Shown: piece by piece, positions 22,403 through 52,921 of the stretch
Layout of the letters: each line of letters opens with the position of its first letter
Position numbering within the stretch: position 1 is the stretch's first letter
Assembly: GCA_039029275.1 (NCBI GenBank)
Contig: JBCCGL010000014.1
Location: 49,961-113,960, forward strand
Length of the DNA: 64,000 nt
Reading direction: 5' to 3'
From: Pseudomonadota bacterium
GTDB lineage: Bacteria; Pseudomonadota; Gammaproteobacteria; JBCCGL01
The notes under the pieces: generated by a model
Seen by the model: only the letters and a program-made list of their open reading frames with translations
Told to the model about the DNA's origin: nothing
Databases searched by the model: none
Position numbers and translations under genes: made by a program

Positions 22403-22465
22403 CTATTATTCACAGGATCAGGGCGAAGGGAGGTTTAAATAGCGGGATCACCGCATGTTTTGCTT

Positions 22466-22615
22466 CCCATTCTCTATCATCCGGACTATTACCGTCGGCT
22501 TTGGAATCGCACCAAATCTGCTGACCTTTTAGACAAGCTAAAAGCGCTCGCGGGCTTAACGGGCTAAACCCGAATCACCGCCGGTGGGGAATTGCACCCC
22601 GCCCCGAGAACACAC
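22466..22615 (-). ncRNA. FMN riboswitch (RFN element)
   Basis: Minus strand reads TTCTCGGGGCGGGGTGCAATTCCCCACCGGCGGT...AGCCCGCGAGCG...GTCAGCAGATTTGGTGCGATTCCAAAGCCGACGGTAATAGTCCGGATGATAGAGAA, upstream of ribH. Confidence 0.95.
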
Positions 22616-38055: not shown

Positions 38056-38135
38056 CCCGTGCCGATAAATTGCCACAGATACTTCGAGTGATATACAGCC
38101 TCGTTTTAATTTATTTGCACTGTTGTTTGTGACTG

Positions 38136-38513
38136 TTACGAAATTTCATCAGTCCGCACGATCAAAAATAGCATTATTAACAAGCCGCTTAAAACCCCGA
38201 TTGAGGAAATGCCAAGAACTGGCCCCAACGACTGTGCGTTGAACTTGCCTGCGAACATCAGATAAAGGCCGATTAGCAAAACCACGGAGCTAGCGTGGTG
38301 GACGTAGAACTGAAGTTGGGCGACGCCACCAGAAGGGTTTCCGAGCCAAAGTTTTTGGCATACTCCGTATATAAATGACAATAAGAATCCCACCAGCATG
38401 ATGTGGGCGTGAGTTACGAATTGACTATGGTCTTTTGATGCAGCCATGTATATGCCGAGTACCAGACCAACGATTGCGTATACAAAAGATGTGACTAGAA
38501 ATTTTTTATCCAT
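38136..38513 (-). CDS. small 4-TM membrane protein
   Basis: GIYMA..DH...THAHI.LVG motif, hydrophobic. Confidence 0.7.
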   Translation of the reverse strand: MDKKFLVTSFVYAIVGLVLGIYMAASKDHSQFVTHAHIMLVGFLLSFIYGVCQKLWLGNPSGGVAQLQFYVHHASSVVLLIGLYLMFAGKFNAQSLGPVLGISSIGVLSGLLIMLFLIVRTDEIS

Positions 38514-38848
38514 CGCTTCACCCTTGGTACGTGTTGAACTTAAACAGCTTAAGTCAGGTTAACACGTCTGCGGGATGTAGACTGCTAGAATACTTTCTCG
38601 TGAGAACTGCGATAGAAAAATATTTTGCGTCGTGCGATGCGTCAAGCGAAACCGGGCTTGAATATCTGGAACGGGCTGCGACAAGACGTTAGCTTTGTGC
38701 GTGACGTCATTATGTATTAAGTTTTGGGGGACTTGGTACAACCGATGCTATTTCAAATTCGGCAATTAGTGGTACGAAAAACGCAAATACTTCAGTCATC
38801 GCAAAAAGGGTTTGGCGAATTCATCTGTTTCAAAATCGAATCGAATTT

Positions 38849-39220
38849 TTACGCAATTTTCAAAAACTTTCCTGCTCTAACTCTATTCGGTAAACACGTT
38901 TCCGTCATCACCATACACGGTGTAAGCTTGTCGGCGTAACCGATGTCAAAAAGCATCCCCTGCGAAATCTCACCTGCCATTTTTCGCTCAGGCAAATTAA
39001 CCACAAATAGTGCCTGTTTACCTTCGATCTCGTCAGGATTATCCCGTTCTTGTTTTATGCCGCTGAGAATCGAGCGGGCATGATCGCCAAAGTCCACGCT
39101 CAGCTTCATCAATTTGTTTGATTTCTCCACTTCCTACACATGCATAATTGTTCCAACCCGAATATCCAGTTTTTCCAAATCCGCAAACTCAACTAAATCG
39201 TTTATGGGTGCTTGCTTCAT
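38849..39220 (-). pseudogene. tRNA-binding (Trbp111/CsaA-like) protein with in-frame TAG at 39134-39136
   Basis: LEKLDIRVGTIMHV*EVEKSNKLMKL.VDFG...VVNLPERKMAG..SQGML. Confidence 0.85.
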
Positions 39221-39368
39221 ATATGATGATTTTCAAATAATCGCTAATCTGGGTTAAGTCAGATTTTTGGCAACTATTGTTGATACTGGTGATTGATGAA
39301 TCAGTAATTGTCACACACTAACCCTGATTTTTCTGCGAAAGTCAAAATTACAGACCTCGAAAACACTG

Positions 39369-40478
39369 TTATTGAATGCGTATTTGTCGCACCGCGAACA
39401 ATCCATCTGGAGTGTTTATACTTCCGCTGTTTATGAAATTGACTCGCTTTGAGTCAAAAGCCGCGTGCAGGGAGTTTCCAGCGATATCTTCGATTTGGGA
39501 ATCTACAAGCAGTTGATAAGGTCCAGCGCTCCATGGGCGTTTCGGCGCTAGTGTCCATTGACGATCGTTGATCGAAACGTGACCATCGACACGTTCGCCG
39601 TGAGCGTCAACGAGTTGAATCATTCGCGGCAGCATGCCGGCATCCATTATTCTGTCGAACGTAACAGTTAACGAACTTTTTGAATTGCTTGGGGGTGATT
39701 CGATATGCCAACGTTGCGGCGAAATTGCGCGACGTTCTGCGGTATGTACATGAATTATTTTTGATTCGTCTTTACCGATTTCCACGCCCTCTGCGCTTTC
39801 CATTAAACCAGAAACAATCAATGTGTAAGTTTGATTTCCGTTCAAAGGTGTGCCGGCTCGAACGTTCGGCCCTACACCTCGCTTCAGGCGCCCGGGGTCT
39901 AGTAATAATGTCAGTCGTCTTTGACTGTTGTCCCACAGTTCCGTCGCCAAATTCAGGAACGGATCTGCGATCGTCTGACCTGCGCTGTTTTCGATACGAA
40001 TCTTGTCTCGCGCCTGGCCGCGTGCCATAGGTTCTGAAAAAGTTAGATAAAGTCTAAGCGTATTTTCGGGTATCTGCGCCGCCGTCGGCGAAACGGACAG
40101 GACCCGTGGTGAGGAGTTTTCGCGTTTGTCTATCGTAAAGCGTGCAAAAACGGGTGCCTCCATCGATGACATGTTCACCCCGACAACGTACTCTTCACCG
40201 GCTTTTAATCTAAACCTCGGTGAGAGTCGCAACACATCGGCGTTGCGAGTTGCGGTAAACAGCATCGAACGACCGGTTGCTGACGAAGCATGACGGAGTT
40301 GAATTTCGCCCGACTCAATTTCAGTTGAAAGCACTGTTGTCGCTTGGAAGCAGCACACAACAACCGCGTTAGCGTTTACATCATAACGCGCAGCGACTTC
40401 GGCTTTGAGTCCAAGGGACAAAAACAGTAGCGCGCCAAACACTGCTCGGCGCGCAAGTCTGTGAGCGACGGACATCAA
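39369..40478 (-). CDS. secreted hypothetical protein with Ig-like (Big_5-like) repeats
   Basis: Signal peptide; VLSVSP..PEN.LR.Y.TFSEPM, LTVTFDRIMD, EDIAGN. Confidence 0.65.
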   Translation of the reverse strand: MMSVAHRLARRAVFGALLFLSLGLKAEVAARYDVNANAVVVCCFQATTVLSTEIESGEIQLRHASSATGRSMLFTATRNADVLRLSPRFRLKAGEEYVVGVNMSSMEAPVFARFTIDKRENSSPRVLSVSPTAAQIPENTLRLYLTFSEPMARGQARDKIRIENSAGQTIADPFLNLATELWDNSQRRLTLLLDPGRLKRGVGPNVRAGTPLNGNQTYTLIVSGLMESAEGVEIGKDESKIIHVHTAERRAISPQRWHIESPPSNSKSSLTVTFDRIMDAGMLPRMIQLVDAHGERVDGHVSINDRQWTLAPKRPWSAGPYQLLVDSQIEDIAGNSLHAAFDSKRVNFINSGSINTPDGLFAVRQIRIQ

Positions 40479-41701
40479 TTATATTCAATCGGCGGCGCGG
40501 ATTTGTAGCCAAATGGGTCAGGCCCGTCGGCCCAATTCATTTCCACTACGTGATCTGCGCGATCAAAAAAGAATGGCATTGGCAAGGTATGAAGCTGAAT
40601 ATTGCGCGGGTCTTCTGGACTCTGTCGAACCACTACTGCCCAAGTGTCATCAACGGTATCCAGATGCAGGGTTCCGCTCATTGGCATGGCATGTTGTTCA
40701 ACGCCCGCAACTGAGAAGACCGGCTTAACCCCGGTTCCATGAGGCATCGGGTCAGCAGTGGCCAATGCGCCCAATGATATTTGCGCTGCGCTGCGATTAG
40801 TGTTAGTCACCAAAACGTTGTCTGATTTGTCCCAGGCATTTGTAAACTGAATGATATCGATTGGTGTGTTGCCGAATCCCATTTCACCAATCATCGTTCC
40901 GCGCACTTTGGCGCCGTCTTTTAGATCTTCCAAGGGTATGCGCACAACGGGCGTACATGCGTAAACCGCAATGAGGGTGGGCTCGCCCTCCAGCTCTACA
41001 ATCGTTTGTGTAATAACGGGCGCTCGAGTTTCATACTGCGCGTGTACCGCATGCCAAATTTCAACCGATGTTGTCTGTACGTCGCCAGTAAAGGGGTACG
41101 CGATACGACGCAGTTTTGAGCTGAATTCCTCGTTGGAAATTCCGGCGACGATAATCTCACCCTTGTGATAATCAATGTCGGTGATGGCGAGATTGTTCAG
41201 CGGTTGGCCAAACTCAAGTGTTTCATTCTGCGGAACCGGTCCAACACTTGTCTTTGTATGTTTGGCTGTACCCAAATCTACAAGCTCAAGTTTTCCTTTG
41301 TTAACTGCAAATATGACGGCTTCAGCGTTCGGCCCATGACCCCGGTGAACTGATAGAAAGACTTGACGCGTGGCTTTATGCACCACCATGTCGTTGATTT
41401 CGACGTCGTGCGGTTCGACGCCCAACTGCGCCGCTATCTCTCTATCCAGACCGTTGAGAATGGTGCGCCCCTCAAATGTTTGCGCGCGGCCAAGTCGATA
41501 ATCGGCTTGGTCGCTAAGGTGTTTATCGTTCAGATCAAACGCGTGGACAACACCCGCTTTTGAATCGCCTACGAACAGAACATTGTCACTATCAAACGCC
41601 AGGGCGCCTGCAGACTTGAGTGGCGAACCGGCTGCGAGTGCTACTTGCATGCTTGCCATTATCAGTGCGCTGACAGAGATCAAAGAATTGAGTTTTTGCA
41701 C
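40475..41701 (-). CDS. secreted hypothetical protein, probable beta-propeller
   Basis: Signal peptide; blade-like ALAFDSDNVLFVGDS, INDMVVH and ITDIDY segments. Confidence 0.7.
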   Translation of the reverse strand: MQKLNSLISVSALIMASMQVALAAGSPLKSAGALAFDSDNVLFVGDSKAGVVHAFDLNDKHLSDQADYRLGRAQTFEGRTILNGLDREIAAQLGVEPHDVEINDMVVHKATRQVFLSVHRGHGPNAEAVIFAVNKGKLELVDLGTAKHTKTSVGPVPQNETLEFGQPLNNLAITDIDYHKGEIIVAGISNEEFSSKLRRIAYPFTGDVQTTSVEIWHAVHAQYETRAPVITQTIVELEGEPTLIAVYACTPVVRIPLEDLKDGAKVRGTMIGEMGFGNTPIDIIQFTNAWDKSDNVLVTNTNRSAAQISLGALATADPMPHGTGVKPVFSVAGVEQHAMPMSGTLHLDTVDDTWAVVVRQSPEDPRNIQLHTLPMPFFFDRADHVVEMNWADGPDPFGYKSAPPIEYN

Positions 41702-41780
41702 CTAAGGCTCCGTTTGTATTTCGACGTGCACACTATAATCGTTGCCCCAATTCGAATAGTTGCTAATATTCGCCCGGCTT

Positions 41781-41797
41781 GTTCTAGTTTGGAGAAC
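41781..41797. promoter_or_regulatory. LysR-type palindrome GTTCT-N7-AGAAC
   Basis: Inverted repeat immediately upstream of the LysR start in a divergent gap. Confidence 0.5.
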
Positions 41798-41801
41798 GAA
41801 G

Positions 41802-42686
41802 ATGGGGCAGCTAGAAGACCTTCGCGTATTCGTCGCCATTGTCGATAGCAACGGAATCTCTCGAGCCGCAGAGGAATTGCACATCGCCAAATCGGCGGTT
41901 AGCCGAAGGCTGAGTCAGTTGGAAGACCGCTACGAGGTGCGCTTAATCGATCGAGAACGCGGTGCCTGGATGCTGACCGACGCAGGTCGAGAGCTTTATC
42001 AGCGTGCGCTGCGCCTGGTTAACGAAAGCGATGAATTGGATGCAGATTTCAAGCAGCCCGCTTTTGTGTTGGCCGGGCCACTGGCCGTATCCGTACCCGC
42101 AGAGTTCGGCCTGGCGTTTCTGCAAGCGACGTTGGTGGACTTTCAGACTCGCCATCCAGAAATACAGTTTTCCGTCGATTTCGACGATCGCCGGGTCGAT
42201 CTTGACCGAGAAAACTATGACATCGCAATTCGTATCACCGATACATTAGATTCCGAACTTGTTGAGCAGCCCTTGGGTAAAATGTGTCGAGGTCTTTTTG
42301 CGAGCCCGGAATATATTAAAGGCGCAGGTATGCCGCGAACGTTCGAAGAACTCGCAGCCCATCGACTCTTGTACTACGGCAAAGAACGACGGTGTGAATG
42401 GGTTTTTGGAAAAGGGCAAGAAGAACGCAAACTGACTTTCACTCCAGCGCTTAACTCTAACAGTGGCCAGTTTCTTTATCAGGCTACATTGCATGGCCTT
42501 GGTATTTCAAGATTGCCACTCTTCATCGCAAACGAGGCGAAGCAGGATGGACGGTTAATCACGCTATTGCCTGAACTACAGATTCGTACTTATTCGATCA
42601 GTCTTGTTTATCCGTCCAATCGCAGAGTCAATCAACGAATGCGCGTATTCGCTAAAGAGATGTCGCTAGCCTGTGAAGCGCTTTAG
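41802..42686 (+). CDS. LysR family regulator (CrgA/DmlR-like)
   Basis: LRVFVAIVD..GISRAAEEL.IAKSAVSRRL, DIAIRI, ASPEY. Confidence 0.92.
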   Translation: MGQLEDLRVFVAIVDSNGISRAAEELHIAKSAVSRRLSQLEDRYEVRLIDRERGAWMLTDAGRELYQRALRLVNESDELDADFKQPAFVLAGPLAVSVPAEFGLAFLQATLVDFQTRHPEIQFSVDFDDRRVDLDRENYDIAIRITDTLDSELVEQPLGKMCRGLFASPEYIKGAGMPRTFEELAAHRLLYYGKERRCEWVFGKGQEERKLTFTPALNSNSGQFLYQATLHGLGISRLPLFIANEAKQDGRLITLLPELQIRTYSISLVYPSNRRVNQRMRVFAKEMSLACEAL

Positions 42687-42767
42687 AAGTCGCGGCGCGC
42701 TAAAACGCAACGCCGCTGTATATTCTGTACCGTGTTTGCTAAGAATGGATGATGTGAGAGTCAGCAC

Positions 42768-43139
42768 TCAACGTTTATTGATCGCCCAGATTCCGGGGCC
42801 TTTCGCCGCCATATACAGGAATGCGAAACTGTAAAACGCGGTAATTTCACCACCGTTCGCAATTGGAAACGGATGGTTTAGGCCGTGTACCAGCCAATAA
42901 CCCACCGCCATTGTTCCGCTGGCGATGAACGCGGCGAATCGGGAATAGAATCCAACTATAATCAAAGCGCCCGCCACTATTTCAATAATGCCAGCAGCGG
43001 TACTCATCGGGTTTAAATCGTATGGAAACGAAATTGGAAAACTGAACAACTTTTGCGTTCCGTGGCATAAAAATAGAAACCCGGTCACCACTCGGAAAGC
43101 TGCGTAGGTTTGCTCAGTGAAGCTGTTCAAAATATTCAT
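42768..43139 (-). CDS. DoxX family membrane protein
   Basis: HGTQKLF, AAFIASG.MAV.Y, NGGE, GPG.W. Confidence 0.88.
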   Translation of the reverse strand: MNILNSFTEQTYAAFRVVTGFLFLCHGTQKLFSFPISFPYDLNPMSTAAGIIEIVAGALIIVGFYSRFAAFIASGTMAVGYWLVHGLNHPFPIANGGEITAFYSFAFLYMAAKGPGIWAINKR

Positions 43140-43252
43140 AATATCCTCCTCAAGTTAAAAAATACCTATTTCGTTGGTAACACTGAATAAAGTAGATGAC
43201 ATAATGTGTAGCAATTTCGCAGACAGAATGCGTATGTGAGTTAAGCGAAATA

Positions 43253-43870
43253 TTATTTGCGTTTACCAATACAAATCAGTGCTGTTGGTTTAATTGACTC
43301 ATTAACGCCCAATAATTTTTGTACTTTCTCATCGTCGAATCCCCCGACCAAAACTGCGCCTAAATCAATACAACTCGCTTGTAGCTGAACATTTTGTGCG
43401 ATCGACCCTGCTTCCAAGTAAATATAGCGGTCGCCTCTTTTGCCGCGTGGCGGCTGTTCGAAAAAATGAGTTTTCATCAGTTCAAAATCAGCAGTTAAGA
43501 CCAGGATCATCGCTGCTTCAAGCCCCCATGGTTGGTGATCAATCGCTGCACTAAAAAATTCTTTTCGAAAATCTTTTTTAGTCTTTAAGTCGAGAGAGTG
43601 TTCGTGTGAGCAATATTGAAAAATTCCCGGAGATAAGTCAGATATATTTACCACGACAACATATATTTGGCTCGGGTACTGGGCGCCAGCTGACGGTGTG
43701 GTTCGTTTGTTTTCGGAACCGGTTAGTCCTTGCGCTGCCCACAGTAAAACGGATATTTCACGTAAGTCAATCGATGCTTCTGAAAATTCTCGATAACTCC
43801 TGCGCTTTGCAATAACGCTGTTTAGCGACTTGGTATTTGTGGTATCTGGAGGAGGAAGGTCAATTTTCAT
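43253..43870 (-). CDS. SagB/ThcOx-like nitroreductase family protein
   Basis: RRS.REF, LLWAAQG, RTTPSAGA.YP, LEAG.IAQN..L. Confidence 0.88.
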   Translation of the reverse strand: MKIDLPPPDTTNTKSLNSVIAKRRSYREFSEASIDLREISVLLWAAQGLTGSENKRTTPSAGAQYPSQIYVVVVNISDLSPGIFQYCSHEHSLDLKTKKDFRKEFFSAAIDHQPWGLEAAMILVLTADFELMKTHFFEQPPRGKRGDRYIYLEAGSIAQNVQLQASCIDLGAVLVGGFDDEKVQKLLGVNESIKPTALICIGKRK

Positions 43871-43889
43871 TGCGTATTTTGATTTTTTG

Positions 43890-43965
43890 TACCTGTGCTT
43901 TTGGCTTAGCGGTGCCAGCGCCGATTTTCAGTGCCTTGTGAGCGAACTTGAATTGCGCATAAGTG
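43890..43965 (-). repeat. degenerate attC-like element
   Basis: Minus strand GCAATTCAAGTTCGCTCAC...GGCACCGCTAAGCC; shares AAGTTCGC with the 46385-46452 element. Confidence 0.35.
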
Positions 43966-44014
43966 ATACCCGCTGATGTGAGTCTTCTTTAATCAGACAA
44001 AAAATTCAGAGAGA

Positions 44015-45277
44015 TCACGGCTCTGACCGTTTCCCGGTAATTAATCGCGCACCGCGACCGTAGGTGACATATTGTCTTAACCAGTTCAATGCAACCAGAA
44101 TTGGACTTCGCACGCCAATAAGGAAATAGATGTGCGCGATCCCCCAAATCCACCAGGCGACGAGTCCGGTAAGCCGCATAAATGGCAATTCTATCACGGC
44201 AGATTTTCGTCCAATGGTTGCCAGATTACCACTATGGCGATAGCGAAATACGGTGGGCGGAGATTGTCCGGTTATGCGTGATTGGATCAGCCCTGCAACA
44301 AACCGCCCTTGCTGTTTTGCGGCAGGCGCAATCCCCGGCACTGGCGCACCCTGATCATCGTTAACGGCTGCAGTGTCGCCAATAACAAATACGTTGGGAT
44401 ATCCAGCAATGGACAGATCGTCTTGCACCAGCGCTCTTCCCGCAGAATCGCTTTCCACACCCAGCCACTGTGCTGCAGGCGATGCTGCGACGCCCGCTGC
44501 CCACAACACTGTTGCCGAGGGGATTTGGGTCTCAGCGACAACAACGCCGTCGCTGTCGCACAGGGTAACGGCGTCACCAAGACGTACGTCGACCCCGAGC
44601 GATTCAAGCGAACGTCTGGCGTAATCAGAAAGTTCCTGCGGCATGGCGGGCAAAACCCGCAGGCCTGCCTCGATCAATATCACCCGAGCGCTGCGCGAAT
44701 CAATATGTCGAAAATCGGAAGCCAGCGTCCATTTCGCCAGTTCCGCAATCGTGCCGGCCAGTTCCACACCGGTTGGCCCTGCACCGACGACCACAAATGT
44801 GAGTAGACGCTGGCGCTCGCTTTCCTCATCTGTCATTTCGGCTTTTTCGAAGGCGAGCAGAACACGCTGCCGGATCAGCGTTGCATCGTCGATGCTTTTA
44901 AGACCTGGCGCAAACGCCTCCCATTCTTGATGGCCAAAATAGGCATGTCGGGCTCCGGTGGCGAGTATCAAATAATCAAACGGAATCCTGCGTGCTTTAG
45001 TTACGACATTGTTTGTATCAAGGTCCACATCGCAAACCTCGTCGAGAAGCACCGTGACATTTTTTTGATCACTCAAAATGCCGCGAATTGGCCAGGCAAT
45101 ATCAGACGGTGCCAGACCCGCAGTCGCTACCTGATAGAGCAGCGGCTGAAACAAGTGATAATTCTGCCGATCAATCAGCGTTATATTGACGTCGGTTTTT
45201 CGTAGACCCAAGGTAGTGAAGAGTCCACCGAAACCTGCGCCTACTACAACAACTTGAGGCTTATCGGGGTTTTTCAT
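44015..45277 (-). CDS. type II NADH dehydrogenase-like FAD-dependent oxidoreductase
   Basis: VVGAGFGG, FQPLLYQVATAGL, VVGAGPTGVELAG, WAAGV, IGD. Confidence 0.9.
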   Translation of the reverse strand: MKNPDKPQVVVVGAGFGGLFTTLGLRKTDVNITLIDRQNYHLFQPLLYQVATAGLAPSDIAWPIRGILSDQKNVTVLLDEVCDVDLDTNNVVTKARRIPFDYLILATGARHAYFGHQEWEAFAPGLKSIDDATLIRQRVLLAFEKAEMTDEESERQRLLTFVVVGAGPTGVELAGTIAELAKWTLASDFRHIDSRSARVILIEAGLRVLPAMPQELSDYARRSLESLGVDVRLGDAVTLCDSDGVVVAETQIPSATVLWAAGVAASPAAQWLGVESDSAGRALVQDDLSIAGYPNVFVIGDTAAVNDDQGAPVPGIAPAAKQQGRFVAGLIQSRITGQSPPTVFRYRHSGNLATIGRKSAVIELPFMRLTGLVAWWIWGIAHIYFLIGVRSPILVALNWLRQYVTYGRGARLITGKRSEP

Positions 45278-45359
45278 TAATGTCGCCAAATGTGTGCACC
45301 AGAGGCCAAACGCGAGACCGTATGGTCTGCGATTGTGACTGGGCTAATTCTAAAGTACT

Positions 45360-45890
45360 TCAATGTGCGTGATTGTGGTTTCCGCTTCCACTTGAATACC
45401 CCCGAAGAGAGTCGTACATCTTTACTTGATGATGAGACAGAACATTTTTCATCTTCAGATGAGCAAGTAAGTGAGTACCGCGAAGCATTGCTCTGGTTTT
45501 GCCAATTTTTAAGAGCAGGGGATCGAGTGTCGAGGCTGATATCTGCTTACTCGAAAAAAGTATATCCAGCTCTTCTTCGTATTTTACAAGCTGAGTTCCA
45601 AGGTAAATTGCTTTTTCGCGCATCTTTTCAAATATTAGATTTGTTTGTTCAATCTGATGCGCAGACAGGTGTAGTTGCTCAGTCAAATCGAGCACATGCC
45701 GAGGCCCCGGGTAGTGATTAAGCTCTGCCGCTTTAGCAAAGCCCATGCCGTGACCTTTCAGCAACGCAGCAATCTCATCAGGTGCAAGTGATTTGATATT
45801 TTTTGTTTCCTCTCCCGCATAAGGGGATTGTGTGGAGGCCAAGGATAGATTCGCGCCGACGAAAAACAGGATGGCAAATATCAGTCTCAT
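45360..45890 (-). CDS. Spy/CpxP-like periplasmic protein
   Basis: Signal peptide, SPYAG, GMGFAKAAELNHYPGP.HVL, LSHHQ..YD.LRGY, His-rich tail. Confidence 0.75.
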   Translation of the reverse strand: MRLIFAILFFVGANLSLASTQSPYAGEETKNIKSLAPDEIAALLKGHGMGFAKAAELNHYPGPRHVLDLTEQLHLSAHQIEQTNLIFEKMREKAIYLGTQLVKYEEELDILFSSKQISASTLDPLLLKIGKTRAMLRGTHLLAHLKMKNVLSHHQVKMYDSLRGYSSGSGNHNHAH

Positions 45891-45964
45891 ATCAATTTTC
45901 CTACGTATCGTAATACCCGACATCAGCGCCAAACCGACTGCGCGTTTTTGCTCGCCGGCATTGC

Positions 45965-46372
45965 TCATTTTCGATCATAAGGAACCACTGCGATCGGAGT
46001 GAGTTCTACCAGAAAATCCTCGTGGCCAAGACCAGCTACCCTAACAGAGGTGCTGACAGGAGGGTTCTCTTGCGTGAGGAATTCGTTTCGAACCGACTGT
46101 ATCTTAGGTAAATCTTCCAGATAGAGACAATACGTGGTGATGGACACAATATCCTCAAGTTTTCCACCGACTTCATTCAGAAGAGATTCGATGTTTCGAA
46201 AGCACTGTCGCGTTTGTTCCGCGACATCACCTCTACCGACTATATTTTCTTCCGCATCCCAGGCGACTTGCCCGGTTAAGTAGATGAGGTTTCCTGCGGG
46301 TGGAATGACACCCATGCTAAAACCACGTCCGCGAGATTTCCATACCGATTCCGATTCAAAAGATTTACGCAT
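45965..46372 (-). CDS. RidA family protein
   Basis: IYLTGQVA, EQT.QCF.NI, P.ST.V.V.GL...LVE. Confidence 0.85.
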   Translation of the reverse strand: MRKSFESESVWKSRGRGFSMGVIPPAGNLIYLTGQVAWDAEENIVGRGDVAEQTRQCFRNIESLLNEVGGKLEDIVSITTYCLYLEDLPKIQSVRNEFLTQENPPVSTSVRVAGLGHEDFLVELTPIAVVPYDRK

Positions 46373-46384
46373 GCGAAGATTCAG

Positions 46385-46452
46385 TTAGTGCCTCAATTTA
46401 GGGGTCCAGCGAGAAAGCGCAATCGAAAGCGCGAACTTAAGCGGTATAGTTC
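46385..46452 (-). repeat. degenerate attC-like element
   Basis: Minus strand GAACTATACCGCTTAAGTTCGC...CCCCTAAATTGAGGCACTAA, starting just after a stop codon. Confidence 0.4.
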
Positions 46453-46454
46453 TT

Positions 46455-46922
46455 TCAAACGTCTATCTCTCTCACTGAGCGATTGATTTCGTCCTGGCAC
46501 GATTTGTCGATTTCTATCTTTTTTCCGTCATCCATCTTTTGGTCAACAGACGTTGTCTCGACCACGTACATCGGCTTCGCAGAGAGTAGCGAAAACGGAA
46601 TGTTATAAACAACCCCGCTGTTCTCATCAGACCACGTGAAGACCACATGTGGCGGTACGTCTGTTTGGTGATGAAACCAGGTGCCTCTTATCTTTTGAAT
46701 TTCTCCCACAAAATACTGATCCATGCATTCGGGAATAGTCATTTCCAGATTCTTCGCCTGAAACGTTCGAGTAACCACATCGAATTTTACGGGTTGCACA
46801 TATTCGGGAATTTCGAGGATAAATCCTTTCTCGTCCATTTCCAGCTCGGCATTGTCGTGTGCGAGACACATCTTCGCGAATAAAAGTATCAGTACTAATC
46901 CAATTCCAACGATTTTTTTCAT
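46455..46922 (-). CDS. secreted hypothetical protein
   Basis: 155-aa ORF with signal peptide, AT-rich. Confidence 0.65.
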   Translation of the reverse strand: MKKIVGIGLVLILLFAKMCLAHDNAELEMDEKGFILEIPEYVQPVKFDVVTRTFQAKNLEMTIPECMDQYFVGEIQKIRGTWFHHQTDVPPHVVFTWSDENSGVVYNIPFSLLSAKPMYVVETTSVDQKMDDGKKIEIDKSCQDEINRSVREIDV

Positions 46923-47171
46923 TTGATTCGATTTTTAACGCATCGGTAAATCACAAGCGCTTAAGTGCATAAAGCAGGTTAAAGATGGGGCGGTGCAAAC
47001 AACGCTTTGAATCTTTTCATAGACCGCTGCGCCTTTTCAAGGCATCAGGCGAGCAAGGGCTCTGGAATACCGTTTTTGGTATTGCTTTTTTAAATCAACC
47101 GGATCGAAATATATCCATATCCGCAGGGGTGCACAATCTGATATAAATTCGCACATTAAACGCGGACTTTA

Positions 47172-48187
47172 TTGAAGCAGGACACCATGTTGCAACCTCA
47201 ACTCAATTTGGAAAGCCTTGCCCGCAAGCTCGACGCGGGTGGATTTAATCCAGATGACGCCGCCGAATCGCTGACGTTACCATCTGTTTGGTACTACGAT
47301 TCGGAAATTTTTGAACTGGAACAGCAGCGTTTGTTCCTGCGTGCGTGGGTTTACGTTGGGCATGTTACCGATCTGAATGCACCGGGCAGGCAACTTGCTG
47401 CTCATGTGGGTGATCAGGCTGTTCTTGTAATCCGAAACGATGAGAACGAATTGCAGGCGTTCGACAGCGCTGATCTGCGCCCGGTGCGAGTTGAGGTCTA
47501 CGCCGGACTTTTGTTTGTAAATTTCGACACAGACGCCGTGCCGCTGGCCTCGCAGGCGAGCCAGCTTCTGGAAGCGATCAATCGGGTTTGCCCGGATTTA
47601 GCACACATGAAATGCGCGCACCGTGCGACACGCGACGTTGCGGCAAACTGGAAAACGATTGTTGATAACAACCACGAGTGCTACCACTGCGCAGTGAACC
47701 ACCCCGATTTAATGGCGATGACCGATTACTCCGCGCGCGCGACCTGGTCCGATGAAGGCATCACGTTTGTCCACACGCTGGACGGCTACAGTGAGGATAG
47801 CGCGCCATTTACCTGCGAGCATTCAGGGACCGAATCGCTCTACAGTTTTATCTTCCCGACTGCGATCCCGCTTTTCTTTGCTGGGACCGGCGGTCTGGTT
47901 CTGTTTCACATTCGGCCGACCGGCCCGCAGACGAGCCAAATTGGGCATGACTTTTACTTCCCCGATGGTACGTCAGCAAAGGCGCAGTCTGAATTCATCG
48001 ACTACATCACCCAAACGCTGGCCACCGAAGACGTGGGGTGGGCCTGTGCGTGAAGGTGCAAGAAGGGTTGAACTCAAAAGGATACGTTCAGGGGAAGTTT
48101 GTTGTGGACTATGACAACTTTGGGTTTTCGGAGCACCATGTCCATTTTTTTCAGGCACTGGCATACCGAGCGCTTGTGGAGGCTTGA
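47172..48187 (+). pseudogene. Rieske oxygenase alpha subunit lacking the [2Fe-2S] domain, with a 5-bp duplication frameshift
   Basis: ELQAF joined directly to DSADL with no CxH...CxxH; NWK..VDN.HECYHC retained; GTGGG duplicated at 48033-48042 and removing one copy restores DVGLCVKVQEGL..EHHVHFFQ to TGA 48187. Confidence 0.85.
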
Positions 48188-48193
48188 TCTAAA

Positions 48194-49480
48194 GTGGAGT
48201 CGTATTGGGCCGAAACTGCGGGGGCGGATCAAGCTTGGCCGACCGTGCAGGGGGCGCTAACAGCAGACGTTGTAATCGTTGGCGGCGGATACCTCGGGCT
48301 CTCCTGCGCTCTGCAACTGGCGGCGCAGGCCACAAATGTGATCTTGCTGGACGCGCAAACCCCGGGTTGGGGGGCGTCCGGGCGCAACGGTGGCCAGATC
48401 ATCCCGGGCCACAAATACGAACGCACCGATCTGGTCGAAAAGCTCGGGGAAGAGCGCGGCGGGCGCCTGTTTTCCTGGGCGGGAACGTTTGCCGATCAGA
48501 CGCTCGATCTAATCGAACGTTATCAGATTGACTGCGACGCCTCTCAATCTGGCTGGATTCAGCCAGCGCACGCAAAATCTGTCCTCGACAAGATGATCAC
48601 GCGAGTGCGCGAATGGGAGCAGGAAGGTGCCAACCCAAAAATTGTCGACGCAGCGGAAACATCGCGCTTATTGGGTACAGACTGGTACAAGGGCGCGTAT
48701 GTGGATCCGCGCGGTGGTCGTCTGCATCCGCTCAAATACGCGCGCGGTCTTGCCAGAGCCGCCGCCGACGCTGGAGCGTCGATCTTCGCGAATTCTGCTG
48801 CGACAAAGTTGGAACGCGTATCCGGCAAGTGGAACGTTTCGACAGCGTCCGGAACCGTTTTTGCAGAACAGGTGCTGATTTGTACCAACGCCTACACAGA
48901 AGCGGGCGATCATTTAATCAAAGGCCTGTACAAAAGCGTTGTTCCATTCCCGTCCTATATCATCGGTACAGGCCCGCTGACCGACAATCAGCGCGAGTCG
49001 ATCCTTCCCGACGGTCAAACAGCGGCAGACCTCAAGCAACTGATCAACTACTTCCGGCTTGAGGCGGATGGGTGCTTCCTGTTCGGTGGGCGTGGTCCGC
49101 TGCGCGAAACGGATGATCCCGGTGTATATGAGCCCATCCGTCGCAAGATGTTGGAGTTTTTTCCACAGTTGGCTGCTGTGCCCATGCAATACGGCTGGAG
49201 CGGGCGGGTCGCGCTTACATCTGATGGTTTGCCGCATTTGCATAACGCTGCGCCGGGTCTTTGGGCGTCGCTCGGGTGTAACGGGCGCGGGGTGGGATAT
49301 GCGACCGGAACCGGTAAGCTGCTCGCGGAGTTGATACAAGGATCTGACCCGGCACAGTCGCCGATTCCAATTACACCGGTTTCGCGCATACCGTTTCATA
49401 GTCTTTATTTGCTCGGTGCGGGGATTGCTGTGTGGCACAAGAACCGATGCGATCAGGTAGAGCGCAATCGGTCGGCTTAG
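48194..49480 (+). CDS. FAD-dependent oxidoreductase (DAO/PuuB-like)
   Basis: VGGGYLGLS, GASGRNGG, CTNAY, GCNGRG. Confidence 0.9.
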   Translation: MESYWAETAGADQAWPTVQGALTADVVIVGGGYLGLSCALQLAAQATNVILLDAQTPGWGASGRNGGQIIPGHKYERTDLVEKLGEERGGRLFSWAGTFADQTLDLIERYQIDCDASQSGWIQPAHAKSVLDKMITRVREWEQEGANPKIVDAAETSRLLGTDWYKGAYVDPRGGRLHPLKYARGLARAAADAGASIFANSAATKLERVSGKWNVSTASGTVFAEQVLICTNAYTEAGDHLIKGLYKSVVPFPSYIIGTGPLTDNQRESILPDGQTAADLKQLINYFRLEADGCFLFGGRGPLRETDDPGVYEPIRRKMLEFFPQLAAVPMQYGWSGRVALTSDGLPHLHNAAPGLWASLGCNGRGVGYATGTGKLLAELIQGSDPAQSPIPITPVSRIPFHSLYLLGAGIAVWHKNRCDQVERNRSA

Positions 49481-49530
49481 CTGTAGCAAACAGCGCAAAC
49501 GATTGGGACTAGATTGATATTTTTGTTTTC

Positions 49531-49588
49531 GTTGTAGCGCGTCGGTTCAGCGAGCGGTGTGAGGTCAGGCTGAATGTGCTGGCTAAGA
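49531..49588 (-). repeat. degenerate attC-like element
   Basis: Minus strand TCTTAGCCAGCACATTCAGC..ACCTCACACC..GCTGAACCGACGCGCTACAAC; TTCAGC/GCTGAA arms pair. Confidence 0.45.
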
Positions 49589-49614
49589 GTTTTGTCATCA
49601 GGTTTGTTGGCAAA

Positions 49615-50352
49615 CTATTTTATCCATATTCCATGCGTTTGGACCTTACTAAATCTATGGTTACTGGAAAGCGAAAGCACGATGCCGTGAAACCTTGGCC
49701 TTGACCCGATCTGTGTTTGATTCTCCAGCCTTAAAGTGGCATTTGAGAGCGGGTATATCCGGTCATTGGAATGAGATGAAATTTTTAACGCTCGTAGCAA
49801 ATTCTCCACTTTTTCGCTCGATCCCAGCCACACCTCATTGATGCCAGATACCCCATTTCTGTGACTGGTGGCTGTTTGTGTGCTGGTATCCTTCTTGTGG
49901 TTCTCGATTAAGAAAATGTGTTCCAGACCGGACCCCGTTGGAAAGGTTAGGTAGTTCCAGAGGCGTCCTGGCTGAACGTGATGGTCGATGCTTTCTGACC
50001 TCAGTTGTTTTGAGGCGTTGTTTATGTCAAAGCCGCTGAGGGCGACAAATATACCTCCCTCTGAACTGGCAAGAAATTTCGAATAAATTTGCGCCAGTGG
50101 GTCGTTGGAGGTGCCAAGCACAGACATCAATTCGATTTCGGTTCCGTCAGAAAATTCGACAAAGGAATTGATTAAACCATTGTTGTGCACTTTGCCGTCT
50201 TTTACTGTAAATCCGTATTTTTTAAAAATCTGATTAGAGGTTTGTAAATCGTGCACTGCCAAAACGACGTGATCGAGCCTCGGATTATCACCATGAGCAG
50301 GAGAGAAAACCACGAGGCCGAGAAGAATGCAGGATGATAAAAGTACTCTCAT
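49615..50352 (-). CDS. VOC/glyoxalase-like protein with signal peptide
   Basis: LDHVVLAV.DL, GF....G..H.NG..N, IELM. Confidence 0.75.
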   Translation of the reverse strand: MRVLLSSCILLGLVVFSPAHGDNPRLDHVVLAVHDLQTSNQIFKKYGFTVKDGKVHNNGLINSFVEFSDGTEIELMSVLGTSNDPLAQIYSKFLASSEGGIFVALSGFDINNASKQLRSESIDHHVQPGRLWNYLTFPTGSGLEHIFLIENHKKDTSTQTATSHRNGVSGINEVWLGSSEKVENLLRALKISSHSNDRIYPLSNATLRLENQTQIGSRPRFHGIVLSLSSNHRFSKVQTHGIWIK

Positions 50353-50356
50353 AAAA

Positions 50357-50423
50357 ACTCTTAAGGTTCTGCGTCATTGCCGCAGTTCTGCTTCGTACAC
50401 CTGAATGCGTTTGCCTGGTTACA
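50357..50423 (-). repeat. degenerate attC-like element
   Basis: Minus strand TGTAAC...AAACGCATTCAG...TGACGCAGAACCTTAAGAG between two co-oriented genes. Confidence 0.3.
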
Positions 50424-50438
50424 AGACGCGGTTTTTGC

Positions 50439-51028
50439 TTACCTTTTACTCCCGGATACCACGTAGGCTGACGTCGGGAAAGCAGCGGTGCCGCCAGGTG
50501 TTTCAAATTGCGATAGCTCGACGTCAGCCATTTCTACTAGTTGAATGAGTTGAGCTTCGGTTAGCGCGTCATCTTCAGTCCAACCCTTGGCACCCGTATG
50601 GATCCATTCGTTAATCGAGTTAAAGTTACCTGTACCACCATGACCTTAAATTAGAAAGTCGCCAAGGTTGAGCGGCTTGAACAACTTTTCAAGTACGGCC
50701 GAATCACCCATTGCATAAGGAGTGCTGTCTATTTCTCCACCGAGAAATTTCTGCCATAGGTACTCTTCCGCCGCGAGACCCGGATTGTTTTCGAGTTCGT
50801 CCCAAACCAGTACTGCCAAATGACCATTTGGCTTTAGTACCCTGTGCATTTCTTTTACAGCAGTTTCCTTGTTTTCGAAATACATCAAACCAAATTGACT
50901 GACAACGCAATCGAACTGTTCGTCGTCAAACCGAAGGCCTTCCGCCGGTGAAGTAATCCACTCCATGTTGGAAGATTTCCGCCTGGCAATTGCTAACATC
51001 CCCTGGTTGATGTCTACGCCTACAGTTC
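50439..51028 (-). pseudogene. class I SAM methyltransferase remnant (5' truncated, in-frame TAA at 50646-50648)
   Basis: VGVDINQGMLAIA...FDCVVSQFGLMYF...RVLKPNG...FLI*GHGG...FPTSAYVVSGSKR*; motif I missing. Confidence 0.8.
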
Positions 51029-51775
51029 TTCAGACAGTGTGGCGACAATAGGCTCGCCCCTTGTCACAATAATAGTGTGTTCAAATTGCGCGGATAGATT
51101 CGCGGGATGGCCAACGAGTGTCCATCCATCACTCGCCTCGGTTACAGATGTGCTTTTCGTGGACAAAAAGGGCTCAATTGCTATTACTTGACCGAGTTGC
51201 AATCGTCGTGTGTCGTGACGGTTAAAGTAGCTGACAATGCCCTCAGGCTCTTCGTGTAGGCTTCGACCGATTCCGTGACCGGCGAGATTCCTGATTGTTT
51301 TGAACCCGTGCGACTTCGCAGTGCGCTGAATGGCTTTTCCGATTCTATTTATAGGCGCACCAGCTCTCGCTTCCGATAGAGCACGCTTTAATGCCTGCTT
51401 CGCGGCATGACACAGTCGCGCTTTAATTTTTGCTACGGGGGGAACGACAGTCGTGCCACCCGTATCAGCGAAATAGCCTTCCAACTCAGCGGAAACATCA
51501 ATATTCACAACATCCCCTGCCTGAATAATTCTCTTGCCAGGAATGCCATGAGCGGCTTCATTATTGATACTGATGCAAGTCGTACCGGGAAAGTTATAGG
51601 TAACTCTGGGTGCTGATTTGGCTCCCATGCTTTCAAGAAGCGCCGCACCTAGTTCATCCAACTCCGCTGTCGTGATTCCTGGCTCAACAGCACTCAACAT
51701 TGCATCGCGCACCGTGGCAACGGCCCGCCCGGCATTCATGATGCCATCGATATCGTTCTGGCTCTCTACTGTCAT
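51020..51775 (-). CDS. map: type I methionine aminopeptidase
   Basis: CISIN.EAAHGIP, NIDVS, FADT, GHGIG.SLHEEP, IEPF, SAQFEHTI. Confidence 0.93.
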   Translation of the reverse strand: MTVESQNDIDGIMNAGRAVATVRDAMLSAVEPGITTAELDELGAALLESMGAKSAPRVTYNFPGTTCISINNEAAHGIPGKRIIQAGDVVNIDVSAELEGYFADTGGTTVVPPVAKIKARLCHAAKQALKRALSEARAGAPINRIGKAIQRTAKSHGFKTIRNLAGHGIGRSLHEEPEGIVSYFNRHDTRRLQLGQVIAIEPFLSTKSTSVTEASDGWTLVGHPANLSAQFEHTIIVTRGEPIVATLSEEL

Positions 51776-51801
51776 ATATGAACCTTGATTTTTTGATCGA
51801 C

Positions 51802-51849
51802 GGATAATGCTGCTATCAGTGGAGCATGTAGTGTATTCGCTTGTTTGGC
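51802..51849 (-). repeat. degenerate attC-like element
   Basis: Minus strand GCCAAACAAGCGAATACAC...CCACTGATAGCAGCATTATCC right after a stop codon. Confidence 0.45.
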
Positions 51850-51852
51850 TTG

Positions 51853-52233
51853 CTAGGAATTTTCACAGTCAACAACCTCATAGCCAACACCAGTTGTATC
51901 GTTTTCTAATACCGCAACATCAAAATATTCAAGTTCTTCAGCATCGGGTAGATTAGAACGAGGGATTAGGTGAAGATTGATGTCAGTTGTCCCTGCACCG
52001 CAGACCGCAAGCACGACTAGATTCGTTTCAAAACCACAATTAGACGATATTACGTCTATTCCGCGGCGAATAAGTAGCAACGCGCTTTCTTCAACAGATT
52101 CCCCTGAATGCTCGCATTGAATTGCACCTGTGCTTTTAAATACCGTTACCGTGTTAGCGTCTTCTGGGGAACCATTGCTGCCACCACAGCTAACCAAGAT
52201 TGAGATGGCAGAAATTGAGAATATGCGATACAT
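51853..52233 (-). CDS. hypothetical lipoprotein
   Basis: Lipobox-like LVSC, several Cys residues. Confidence 0.7.
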   Translation of the reverse strand: MYRIFSISAISILVSCGGSNGSPEDANTVTVFKSTGAIQCEHSGESVEESALLLIRRGIDVISSNCGFETNLVVLAVCGAGTTDINLHLIPRSNLPDAEELEYFDVAVLENDTTGVGYEVVDCENS

Positions 52234-52241
52234 CAGTTTTT

Positions 52242-52317
52242 CCTCAAGCGAATCAAATCAACGGACTCAGTAGGTGTGAGGTGACTAGTAATGTTCGACT
52301 GCATGCGCTTGTTAAGC
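52242..52317 (-). repeat. attC-like element (best preserved)
   Basis: Stop codon lies inside GCTTAAC (RYYYAAC), then AAGCG spacer and CATGCAGTCG; right arm CCGTTGAT...CGCTTGAGG is eroded. Confidence 0.6.
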
Positions 52318-52701
52318 CTCGGACTGAATCTTCGCAATCTCGTCGTAACAATAGCTAGTAATTTCGAAAGGATTTTCATAAGGATCTGAAAAGTAAATTG
52401 ACCACGATAGCTCGTGGTCGTTTTCAACAAATAATACTCCGTGAAAAGTTAGCTTTTTTTTCCAAGCCAGATAATTTTCTGAGTCTACTGAAAATGCAAT
52501 TGTGGTGGATTTTTTATCTTTGTTTTGAAAAAGTGCTAGATGAACACCACCGTTCGAAATAGTTAGCGGCCCTCCTTCTATAAACCATTTTTCAAGAGCG
52601 TTGACACGTGAGAAGTCCAAAACCTCTTTATACCACCTTTCCGCCTCAAGCCTATTTGGTGCATAGACATGAACGTGATCAATTTTCTCTAATTCAGGCA
52701 T
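52312..52701 (-). CDS. VOC/glyoxalase family protein
   Basis: IDHVHV, WY..VL.F, DH..SWSIYF.DPY.NP.EI. Confidence 0.85.
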   Translation of the reverse strand: MPELEKIDHVHVYAPNRLEAERWYKEVLDFSRVNALEKWFIEGGPLTISNGGVHLALFQNKDKKSTTIAFSVDSENYLAWKKKLTFHGVLFVENDHELSWSIYFSDPYENPFEITSYCYDEIAKIQSEA

Positions 52702-52921
52702 ATTTTGTGTGCACTTCAACTGAAGTATAACAGCGCGCTAATGAGACTTTCGGCCACCTTAACTGTATTATAAGGAATCTATATAACAACACAGTATCCT
52801 CTCGTGTGTTCATGCATCTTTCTGAAAAACAGGCGAAAACAACACATTAGAAATTCTTACTGCGTTTTTACTCGCGCAATCGATTCAAAAAACGTTCGAT
52901 TCCGCGACACCCGTTCTACAA

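Follow-up and report, generated by a model that had tools for sequence, protein, structure and literature searches.

Probable remains of a small integron cassette cluster with eroded attC sites in a low-GC3 island of a gammaproteobacterial genome

Introduction

In a working integron every cassette is terminated by an attC site, the bottom strand of which forms a hairpin whose right arm carries the GTT core cut by the integrase IntI. Clusters of attC sites without an integron integrase are termed CALINs and are proposed to be degraded integrons (PMC9024848). The attG route of insertion and the abundance of two-cassette CALINs are described in bioRxiv 10.1101/2022.09.11.507474. Both kinds of element, CALINs as degraded integrons and SALINs as stray cassettes, are known, and the locus reported here leaves the current picture unchanged.

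The locus lies in a 64,000-nt stretch of contig C14 of a gammaproteobacterial genome (the window), for which a sequence-only reading had proposed a fossil array of about a dozen cassettes. It resembles a CALIN (PMC9024848) in its same-strand cassettes, the attC-derived sequence behind open reading frames and a contig without integrase, and its host genome also carries a complete integron and other CALINs. CALINs are, however, defined by at least two attC sites detected by covariance model, and the sites in the window fail the model. With right arms and fold gone from these sites, the locus is at a stage past catalogued CALINs. With SALINs (bioRxiv 10.1101/2022.09.11.507474) the locus shares cassettes off any integron platform, a resident integrase in the genome and a neutral intergenic position, whereas a SALIN has one detectable, excisable attC and the window has serial relics, none found by the full model. 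The resident integron on contig C1 and the array on contig C9 have attC subtypes in common with the locus (left arm TAACAAGCGCATGCAGyCGGAC and the C1:330993 type), and likewise a stop codon inside R'', low GC3 and short genes; unlike the sites in the window, theirs have retained their TAAC...GTTA cores along with covarying stems and stable folds. Chromosomal integrons of Xanthomonas with inactivated integrases, reported in PMC12444791, are alike in persistence and decay within a lineage.

Materials and Methods

Models of attC were built from the genome's own real attC sites and the window was tested against these, with about 3,950 gene-downstream controls as the comparison set for both half-site and full-length tests. 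The full covariance model, R1, is specific to this lineage and uncalibrated for attC types from elsewhere. The background gene set is the output of a crude ORF caller, and an excluded zone at C9:140-161 kb was delimited partly on weak matches. The genome is a metagenome-assembled bin, and C1 and the window are assigned to one cell by binning. An Rfam search of the window gave no attC match; Rfam, which has no attC model, is silent on the genome's real 17-site array too, and its null result on the window is therefore uninformative. Loci with homologues of the VOC gene came from an alignment-based scan, a scan with the single VOC protein having given nothing.

Results

The resident integron and other attC sites of the genome

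Contig C1 carries a complete integron in which intI (368.8 bits against a cut-off of 265, TIGR02249 profile) is adjoined by 17 attC sites with covariation in 8 of the 12 modelled pairs. Model R1 recovered 15 further attC sites beyond its training set at five or more other loci, none of them on the window's contig. At least five integrase-less attC clusters occur elsewhere in the genome, and contig C9 has an attC array with a truncated integrase. Genes in the real arrays have a mean GC3 of 0.44. The real attC sites score 13.0-29.1 bits with the left-arm PSSM and fold at a mean of -16.9 kcal/mol (n=31, z -3.1).

The sequence-only reading had stated that there was no integrase. This holds for C14, where no TIGR02249 match was obtained and the best tblastn match of the resident IntI had an E of 1.5 and fell outside the region. 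It does not hold for the genome, given intI on C1. The window thus has no integron integrase nearby, as a CALIN has none, and the set of intI, attI and cassette array that makes a complete integron is present on C1 and not in the window.

A low-GC3 island between two native genes

The region under study and its principal members, other than the relics and the genes next to them, are as follows.

ending at 38055: left border gene, MttB-family
38136..52719, no strand assigned: low-GC3 accessory island with sharp edges, delimited by GC3
47172..49480, plus strand: block of native composition inside the island, GC3 0.63 for both genes
47172-48184, plus strand: Rieske-oxygenase alpha-subunit pseudogene, recognised by a profile gap and a frame change
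48194-49480, plus strand: intact DAO-family oxidase, GC3 0.63
ending at 52922: right border gene, GMC oxidoreductase

Eighteen gene-sized ORFs lie within 38136-52719, 15 on the minus strand and three on the plus strand, and GC3 is 0.35-0.52 in 16 of them, no higher than the genome's 18th percentile. Among the 18 flanking genes listed, GC3 runs from 0.53 to 0.71, and the two border genes are at 0.60 and 0.63. In GC3 the island genes resemble the array genes. The AT-richness noted in the sequence-only reading is therefore borne out, and the gene families it named were all correct according to Pfam and NCBIfam profiles. Its description of minus-strand genes fits 15 of the 18 but passed over the three plus-strand genes and the large genes that are not cassette-like. 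The less cassette-like members are LysR, the Rieske-oxygenase pseudogene and the DAO oxidase, all on the plus strand, a 424-aa NDH2-type oxidoreductase and a pair of 408- and 369-aa genes. No tRNA genes were found in the window, and counts of promoter-like and terminator-like sites did not exceed the shuffled expectation.

At least three genes of the island are broken, and the statement that many genes remain intact has to be qualified accordingly. In the Rieske pseudogene the profile match passes from position 77 to 146-148 across only 4 residues, so the Rieske part is missing, and Ring_hydroxyl_A positions 5-165 lie in one frame and 169-201 in another.

The attC relic behind the VOC gene

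The right end of the island holds one gene and one site of particular interest.

52312..52701, minus strand: VOC/glyoxalase-fold gene, 129 aa, ATG at 52701, Pfam PF00903, cassette 1
52241..52320, minus strand: attC relic 1 (site 52317), with a near-intact left arm (R''-L'') at 52293-52317 overlapping the VOC gene's TAA stop

The left arm at 52317 begins GCTTAAC at an offset of -3 from the stop codon, exactly the position seen in many resident cassettes. It scores 25.7 bits with the left-arm PSSM, within the range of real sites; the best of the 27 other non-array places genome-wide with a left-arm score of at least 15 reaches 19.8 bits. It is identical to the attC site at C1:248918 in 24 of 28 positions, a value unique genome-wide outside the arrays. 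The fitting alignment gave z 5.71, reached by 0 of 3949 controls, and the four best local matches of 52317 among 4055 gene-downstream segments were all real attC sites on C1. It was the only site to stand out in strict local Smith-Waterman alignment against single attC sites. A profile of 31 attC sites run with nhmmer matched only 52317 outside the arrays (E 1.3 genome-wide, the first non-array match) and was too insensitive for the other named sites. The right arm and fold of this relic are lost: the full covariance model gave 9.7 bits (E 3.3), the best in the region, with its right arm taken inside the next gene, and the bottom strand has dG -7.1 (z 0.2). Taken together the left-arm matches argue decisively for 52317 as an attC relic.

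The VOC gene is intact: in an alignment of 20 sequences it keeps each of the 29 invariant columns. Its GC3 of 0.35 falls at the 0.3rd percentile. The nearest named homologue belongs to Enterovibrio calviensis (67% identity); a canonical attC follows it, beginning at the stop codon and in the same register (22.9 bits with R1, E 0.0085). Among VOC homologues at large, an attC match at the gene end was found in 1 of 80 genome loci and 0 of 80 metagenome loci. Two metagenome loci, L144 and L145, have attC matches about 550 nt downstream of the VOC homologue, with identical coordinates and score.

A second relic and two probable ones

Three further sites and the genes beside them were as follows.

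51853..52233, minus strand: small lipoprotein-like gene, 126 aa, lipobox read from the sequence, cassette 2
51798..51860, minus strand: attC relic 2 (site 51858), both arms recognisable and eroded
51020..51775, minus strand: second, accessory type-I methionine aminopeptidase (map), TIGR00500, 264.8 bits against a cut-off of 171
50439..50999, minus strand: methyltransferase pseudogene, with a partial profile match and an in-frame stop
49615..50352, minus strand: Glyoxalase_3-domain gene, 245 aa, Pfam PF13468, GC3 0.50
49526..49590, minus strand: attC relic 3, probable (site 49588), from half-site and profile tests
43886..43946, minus strand: attC relic 4, probable (site 43944), of which the left arm alone remains

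Relic 2 has about 10 nt deleted relative to the resident attC at C1:330993-331059, with 43 of the 67 attC nt identical. Its fitting z of 5.11 was reached by 1 of 3949 controls and lies above all 6000 of 6000 random genome windows, and its combined left- and right-arm PSSM score of 19.0 was reached by 1 of 3950. The left arm is identical in 20 of 28 positions (8 of 3949 controls reach this). This is the sole site with any right-arm score, a weak 9.2 bits, and its fold is unremarkable (dG -4.4, z -0.5). The comparisons argue strongly for 51858 as an attC relic. The lipoprotein-like gene belongs to no Pfam or NCBIfam family and is a near-orphan with one other homologue in a search of 5.8 billion proteins; its GC3 is 0.35.

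The map gene shares 33% identity with the copy on contig C3 and has no orthologue in the genome of a sister species (G001), where the best match is 35%; no attC relic was found downstream of it in half-site, gapped-profile or fitting tests. The methyltransferase pseudogene is truncated at its 5' end at the map junction and has an in-frame TAA at 50646-50648, after which the frame continues to a TAA at 50439-50441; it covers positions 74-149 of 223 of a UbiE-type model and 30-94 of 95 of Methyltransf_11. The Glyoxalase_3-domain gene is a possible cassette.

In relic 3 the left arm is altered from TAAC to TAGC and from AAG to CAG, the L stem is reduced to 6 bp and the R' core reads CGCTACA. Site 49588 has a left-arm PSSM score of 13.2 (reached by 6 of 3950 controls), a gapped-profile p of 0.009, a fitting z of 3.86 (47 of 3949) and an identity of 19/28 (69 of 3949); in the unbiased scan of the island it was not significant, at 0.012 per window. 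Relic 4 lies 71 nt past the stop of the NDH2 gene and about 20 nt ahead of the nitroreductase start. Site 43944 is identical to the sister-species attC at G001:2649959 in 21 of 28 positions, a value that 0 of 3949 gene-downstream controls reach and that occurs at 25 other places genome-wide; its PSSM score is 12.3 (9 of 3950 controls), and it does not rise above background in the fitting alignment or the right-arm tests. The tests that single out 49588 and 43944 give p of about 0.002-0.04, and both are moderately supported as candidate attC relics.

Tests across the region

With filters off, R1 gave nothing significant in the region (best 9.7 bits, E 3.3), and a pair of covariance-model attC sites within a few kb, as in a CALIN, was not found with it. 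No right arm stood above background by identity anywhere in the region, and a right arm (L' plus an R' core GTTRRRY) 50-140 nt away and pairing with the left was not found. The bottom strands of the relics do not form the stable imperfect hairpin of a cassette site: dG ranged from -2.2 to -8.2 kcal/mol with z from -2.6 to +0.7, the four supported relics falling between -0.7 and +0.7. An attC left arm at or just after a same-strand stop was present at 52317 and, weaker and above controls, at 51858, 49588 and 43944, and was not found at the other 14 gene ends. The unbiased scan of the island supported two sites individually. In a PSSM scan (left arm at least 9.9) the region was the only non-array place with left-arm matches on three genes in an 18-gene window. 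No supported relic was found between 38.1 and 43.9 kb (the left 5.8 kb) or behind the map, methyltransferase, secreted protein, RidA/202-aa, nitroreductase, DoxX, tRNA-binding and 4-TM genes.

These results divide the seven attC-like spacers of the sequence-only reading. Four can be retained, namely 52317, 51849 (our 51858), 49588 and one given as 43965 that really lies at 43944; the attC resemblance of 50423, 46452 and 43247 was no better than that of controls. The suggestion that erosion had carried the sites below standard detection agrees with the nil result of the model built on the genome's own sites and the recovery of relics by half-site and fitting tests, and mutation of the right-hand cores agrees with there being no recognisable right arm above background at the relics. 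The proposed folding of the spacers gave z of about 0 for relics against -3.1 for real sites. The 10-mer ACCTCACACC does occur in both spacers named, but not beyond chance: the pair ranks 221st of 4055 in similarity, and by our own arithmetic one or two shared 10-mers are expected among about 2.2 kb of spacers. The shared 8-mer AAGTTCGC lost its significance, having three occurrences against 3.73 expected, and it is located at 42 rather than 52 in the last digits, that is at 43942, not 43952.

Discussion

The relics occupy attC positions behind same-strand ORFs, their structure is lost and the genes are of foreign composition. The alignments show these putative relics to be homologous to resident and sister-species attC subtypes. 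We consider it likely that the right part of the region is what remains of a small cassette cluster from the lineage's own cassette pool. A cassette origin is certain for 51.8-52.8 kb, probable for 49.5-52.8 kb, and the cluster possibly extends to 43.9 kb. The sequence-only reading is thus partly confirmed, and we take the locus to be a decayed CALIN that holds from two to four or five cassettes. Since only four sites have support, about four or five cassettes are bounded, and the fossil cassettes of the sequence-only reading survive in that number and not as a dozen-cassette array.

With no recognisable right arm or stable fold, the relics are very probably dead sites. If they can no longer recombine, their genes would be fixed in place. 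Left arms survive to a varying degree, with right arms, GTT cores and fold gone and no integrase nearby, and among the immobilised cassette genes some may have been kept (VOC) while others rot (methyltransferase, tRNA-binding protein). On this account the locus would exemplify a post-mobile fate of cassettes, in which the sites sink below covariance-model detection and the cargo is partly intact and partly rotting.

How the cassettes reached this place is a separate matter. The sister genome has the same attC types and several integrases at differing stages of decay (one intact, one full-length with a stop codon, several truncated), and its attC sites, in small clusters or singly, are spread across at least 14 loci. 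Several of its attC clusters adjoin integrase fragments, and integrase loss is thus common in the genus. One possible though rather unlikely course is that no platform ever stood here and that the resident integrase put one or more excised cassettes into an ordinary site (attC x attG), which then decayed. The relic arms do match resident attC subtypes, the contig has no intI trace, the cluster sits between the stops of the convergent native genes DAO and GMC, the sister genome has scattered clusters and single sites, and the attG route and the abundance of two-cassette CALINs are documented in bioRxiv 10.1101/2022.09.11.507474. However, the fragments beside sister-genome clusters show that an integrase may simply be lost, two to four serial relics of different subtypes look like a piece of an array, and no recognisable junction sequence discriminates the two routes. 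In a synteny comparison with G001, the only same-genus genome, the GMC gene alone has an orthologue (73% identity), and because its surroundings differ no empty site or orthologous integron locus can be demonstrated there.

Less probable again is that the full 14.7 kb of the island, with about a dozen genes between 38.1 and 52.8 kb, was one fossil array with most attC sites eroded past recognition. Its uniform composition, sharp borders and array-like GC3, the strand common to 15 of 18 genes, the spread of supported relics over 43.9-52.3 kb, the many spacers of a size for attC plus UTR and the repeated decay of integrons in the genus would all suit such an origin. Set against these are the stretch from 38.1 to 43.9 kb without a supported relic, eight genes or groups (map to 4-TM) with none behind them, and a plus-strand block of native GC3 in mid-island. 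The divergent LysR and 2.3-kb two-gene unit are ordinary operon architecture, and the other attC clusters hold no homologues: neither the 14 attC loci of the sister genome nor the arrays of this genome encode a homologue of any island protein, save for one RidA paralogue at 34%. It is equally doubtful that the entire low-GC3 island shows a sedentary chromosomal integron at its end stage, within a genus where integrons have been gained and lost again and again, with cassette genes steadily handed to the chromosome and left arms outlasting right. If it were true, lineage-specific half-site models could reveal, and roughly date, fossil arrays that are invisible to standard tools.

Chance resemblance in ordinary intergenic DNA with no integron history is very improbable: at most one site responds to the full model, strict local alignment and right-arm tests, and the shared k-mers are at chance level, but it is already contradicted for 52317, whose PSSM score and identity are both unique genome-wide outside the arrays and which lies at -3 from a stop, and for 51858, which beats every random window, and is possible for 49588 and 43944 individually.

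For the small decayed cluster that we favour, the practical point is that relics can be recovered with half-site models derived from the genome's own attC sites and set against gene-downstream controls, and such recovery bears on tallies of integron-derived accessory DNA in chromosomes. No RNA sequencing runs holding the stretch were listed and no variants of the locus were seen in sequencing runs, of which one marine metagenome run, a possible source of this DNA, carries the whole stretch and the others carry only scraps.

The resident integron and its attC sites

A complete integron integrase gene was found on contig C1 of this genome (TIGR02249, 368.8 bits, where the cut-off is 265); contig C9 carries a truncated copy. 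Seventeen attC sites lie upstream of the C1 intI; their TAAC...GTTA cores are invariant, and their alignment contains compensatory changes in 8 of 12 predicted pairs. The whole locus (C1:327994-338499, loci L007 and L001, outside the window) is a complete chromosomal integron in which these model-detected sites stand behind minus-strand cassettes; its integrase is a 326-aa stop-to-stop frame above the TIGR02249 cut-off, and one extra 138-nt site was detected by pattern only. A covariance model made from the 17 sites (R1) matched 32 sites in the genome, a metagenome bin with 94% completeness and 0.9% contamination. Fifteen matches lay outside the training set and were spread over five or more integrase-less clusters on C1, C2, C7 and C9; none of the 32 was on the contig of the window. 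Rfam gave no attC match on the window; since the real array gives none either, Rfam has no attC model.

Integron sequences elsewhere in the genome
C9:161000-168205, truncated intI (146-aa ORF) and adjoining attC sites
C1:246040-250365, C1:278968-280586, C2:372877-373881, C7:9968-11899 and C7:71071-71160, other attC clusters and lone sites lacking an integrase (at least five)
C11:29376-29495, IntI-like patch of 40 residues

Weak left-arm matches extend to C9:142 kb, and this stretch may be another eroding array.

The three contigs of the sister genome, of the same genus, contained 30 R1 matches at 14 or more loci. Its integrases include an intact one, a full-length one interrupted by an internal TGA, another broken by a TAG, and several fragments from the N-terminus; attC clusters adjoin most of these. 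Integrases at different stages of decay are seen, for example, on its contig C1 at 2643003-2650495, 700526-709556 and 341555-351978, indicating that integron decay is common in the lineage. No homologue of the island proteins and no match to the window flanks was found at the attC loci of the sister genome.

Gene content and composition of the island

The region at 38136-52719 contains 18 gene-sized ORFs, of which 15 are minus-strand and 3 plus-strand. The gene families named in the sequence-only reading, which had taken this region for a fossil cassette array, were recovered with Pfam and NCBIfam.

Island genes identified by Pfam/NCBIfam
52312-52719, minus, VOC
51020-51775, minus, type-I methionine aminopeptidase (map)
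50646-50999, minus, methyltransferase fragment
49615-50352, minus, Glyoxalase_3
45965-46372, RidA
43253-43870, minus, SagB-type nitroreductase
42768-43139, minus, DoxX
38849-39130, tRNA-binding domain

Less cassette-like genes, which that reading did not mention, are also present: a plus-strand LysR regulator facing a pair of 408 and 369 aa, a 424-aa NDH2-type oxidoreductase, and a plus-strand Rieske-oxygenase alpha subunit with a DAO-family oxidase. The genes had been described as AT-richer, and in 16 of the 18 GC3 is indeed low, 0.35-0.52 (no higher than the genome's 18th percentile), versus 0.60 and 0.63 in the border genes, an MttB-family gene ending at 38055 and a GMC oxidoreductase gene ending at 52922. 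Only the plus-strand oxygenase and oxidase depart from this, each with 0.63. Genome-wide G+C is 52.8% and mean GC3 0.58; genes of the real attC arrays average 0.44. By this measure the region is an accessory island with sharp borders.

The VOC gene is intact, keeping 29 of 29 invariant columns in a 20-sequence alignment. At least three island genes are disrupted: an in-frame TAG interrupts the tRNA-binding gene at 39134-39136; the methyltransferase, missing about 70 N-terminal residues, is interrupted by an in-frame TAA at 50646-50648, beyond which its frame continues to 50439; and the oxygenase is without its Rieske segment and frameshifted near its end. The map gene (minus strand) directly abuts the 5'-truncated methyltransferase and is a divergent second copy, 33% identical to the one on contig C3; a search of the sister genome gave no orthologue. 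Accessory peptide deformylases are reportedly carried in mobile elements (PMC12690207), and may offer a parallel. The SagB-type nitroreductase/dehydrogenase (TIGR03605, 102 bits, above cut-off) adjoins the DoxX protein, itself a weak HvfX-like match, within 42768-43870 (minus), and the two could be a piece of a peptide-maturation cluster.

Tests for eroded attC sites

By the standard type of test there is no attC in the window. A covariance-model search, one of the checks suggested in the sequence-only reading, gave nothing significant over the window with our own model R1 and filters off; the best match in the region (9.7 bits, E 3.3, 52188-52317) takes its right arm from inside the next gene. 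We then scored 25-nt left-arm (L) and right-arm (R) matrices from 31 confirmed attC sites over the 100 nt downstream of 4,056 crudely called genes. The controls were the ~3,950 genes of this call that lie outside attC arrays. Weak matches partly determined one zone left out of the controls; re-including it would add two genes to the counts at L >= 12. Because the region had been picked for its likeness to attC, weight was placed on scans of the whole genome and not on p-values from the region alone.

Gene ends above controls (minus strand, named by left-arm position)
52317, VOC, L 25.7 bits (real sites 13.0-29.1), offset -3 from the stop, reached by no control
51858, lipoprotein, L+R 19.0, reached by 1 of 3950
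49588, Glyoxalase_3, L 13.2, reached by 6 of 3950
43944, NDH2, L 12.3, reached by 9 of 3950

The remaining island gene ends were ordinary against the same controls. The next-best left arm after that at 52317, among 27 further places in the genome outside arrays, scored 19.8, and outside known arrays only here do three genes with L >= 9.9 fall in one 18-gene window. A gapped profile ranked the sites identically. End-to-end fitting of each real attC gave z 5.71 for VOC (0 of 3949 controls), 5.11 for lipoprotein (1 of 3949) and 3.86 for Glyoxalase_3 (47 of 3949), with other gene ends of the island at background. An unbiased both-strand scan compared 1,974 windows of the island with 6,000 drawn at random from the genome; only 52.2-52.36 and 51.75-51.93 kb stood out. 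Strict local alignment supported 52317 only. When the 30 sister-genome sites were added to the left-arm comparison, 43944 agreed with one of these left arms at 21 of 28 positions, a value reached by no gene-downstream control and met at 25 other places when all genome positions are counted. No right arm of the region rose above background.

Of the proposed attC-like spacers, those at 52317, 51858, 49588 and 43944 were supported; those at 50423, 46452 and 43247 never rose above background in any test. Two spacers do share the 10-mer ACCTCACACC, but these are otherwise unlike (rank 221 of 4055), and by our arithmetic one or two shared 10-mers are expected among spacers. A shared 8-mer was at chance level, and one of its positions had been placed 10 nt off.

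Anatomy of the four relics

The sequence at 52317, GCTTAACAAGCGCATGCAGTCGAAC, is the R''-L'' arm found in a resident subtype that occurs on C1, C9 and also in the sister genome, and the TAA of its core is the VOC stop codon; beyond the left arm, similarity to the closest real site falls to about half. Site 51858 aligns over its full length with resident site C1:330993-331059 (43 of 67 nt identical, ~10 nt deleted), and carries the right core CATTATC, as originally noted, where the resident site has CGTTAGC. At 49588 two of the six bases that are invariant in real left arms are lost, and the right core is CGCTACA. In all four relics (43886-52320) the left arm, on the stop-codon side, has kept more of its sequence than the right. 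Their predicted folds are -3.7 to -7.2 kcal/mol (z -0.7 to +0.7), the 31 real sites averaging -16.9 kcal/mol (z -3.1), and from these folds we infer that the four would be beyond recombination.

Homologues of the cassette genes

Homologues of VOC are patchily distributed over Gammaproteobacteria, Betaproteobacteria and others. The closest named one among 80 genome loci is from Enterovibrio calviensis (67% identity), where an R1 match (22.9 bits, E 0.0085) runs from the stop codon in the same GCxTAACAAG register, with a fold z of only -0.34. R1, which is uncalibrated for foreign attC types, matched at the VOC gene end in none of the other 79 genome loci or 80 metagenome loci. Two metagenome loci (L144, L145) have R1 matches ~550 nt downstream, with identical coordinates and score. 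In a Pseudobacteriovorax MAG (L027, 2891 onward) the homologue ends in GCT TAA CAAAGCAAACC..., which looks like the left arm of an attC and keeps the same register; R1 gave no match on this locus, and from its sequence it could be one more eroded cassette. Only one homologue of the lipoprotein turned up in a large protein collection.

Interpretation

The region is best read as holding a cluster of cassettes that came from the lineage's own pool, lacks an integrase and has decayed. This is certain for the VOC and lipoprotein cassettes; out to 49.5 kb it is probable, and out to 43.9 kb possible. Clusters of attC sites without an integron integrase (CALINs) are conceived as degraded integrons (PMC9024848). 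The cluster agrees with that concept; none of its sites passes the covariance model, which places it outside the operational definition. Off-target cassette insertion by IntI is described in a preprint (bioRxiv 10.1101/2022.09.11.507474), and arrival of the cluster by this route is a possible alternative.

Other features of the window

An Rfam PYLIS_3 match (58.8 bits, 37573-37672, plus strand) lies within the MttB-family methyltransferase ORF at 36661-38055, which has no in-frame stop and at least 12 paralogues in the genome; the match is probably coding-sequence similarity and not a pyrrolysine insertion element. An FMN riboswitch (114.9 bits) is present at 22465-22615 on the minus strand.
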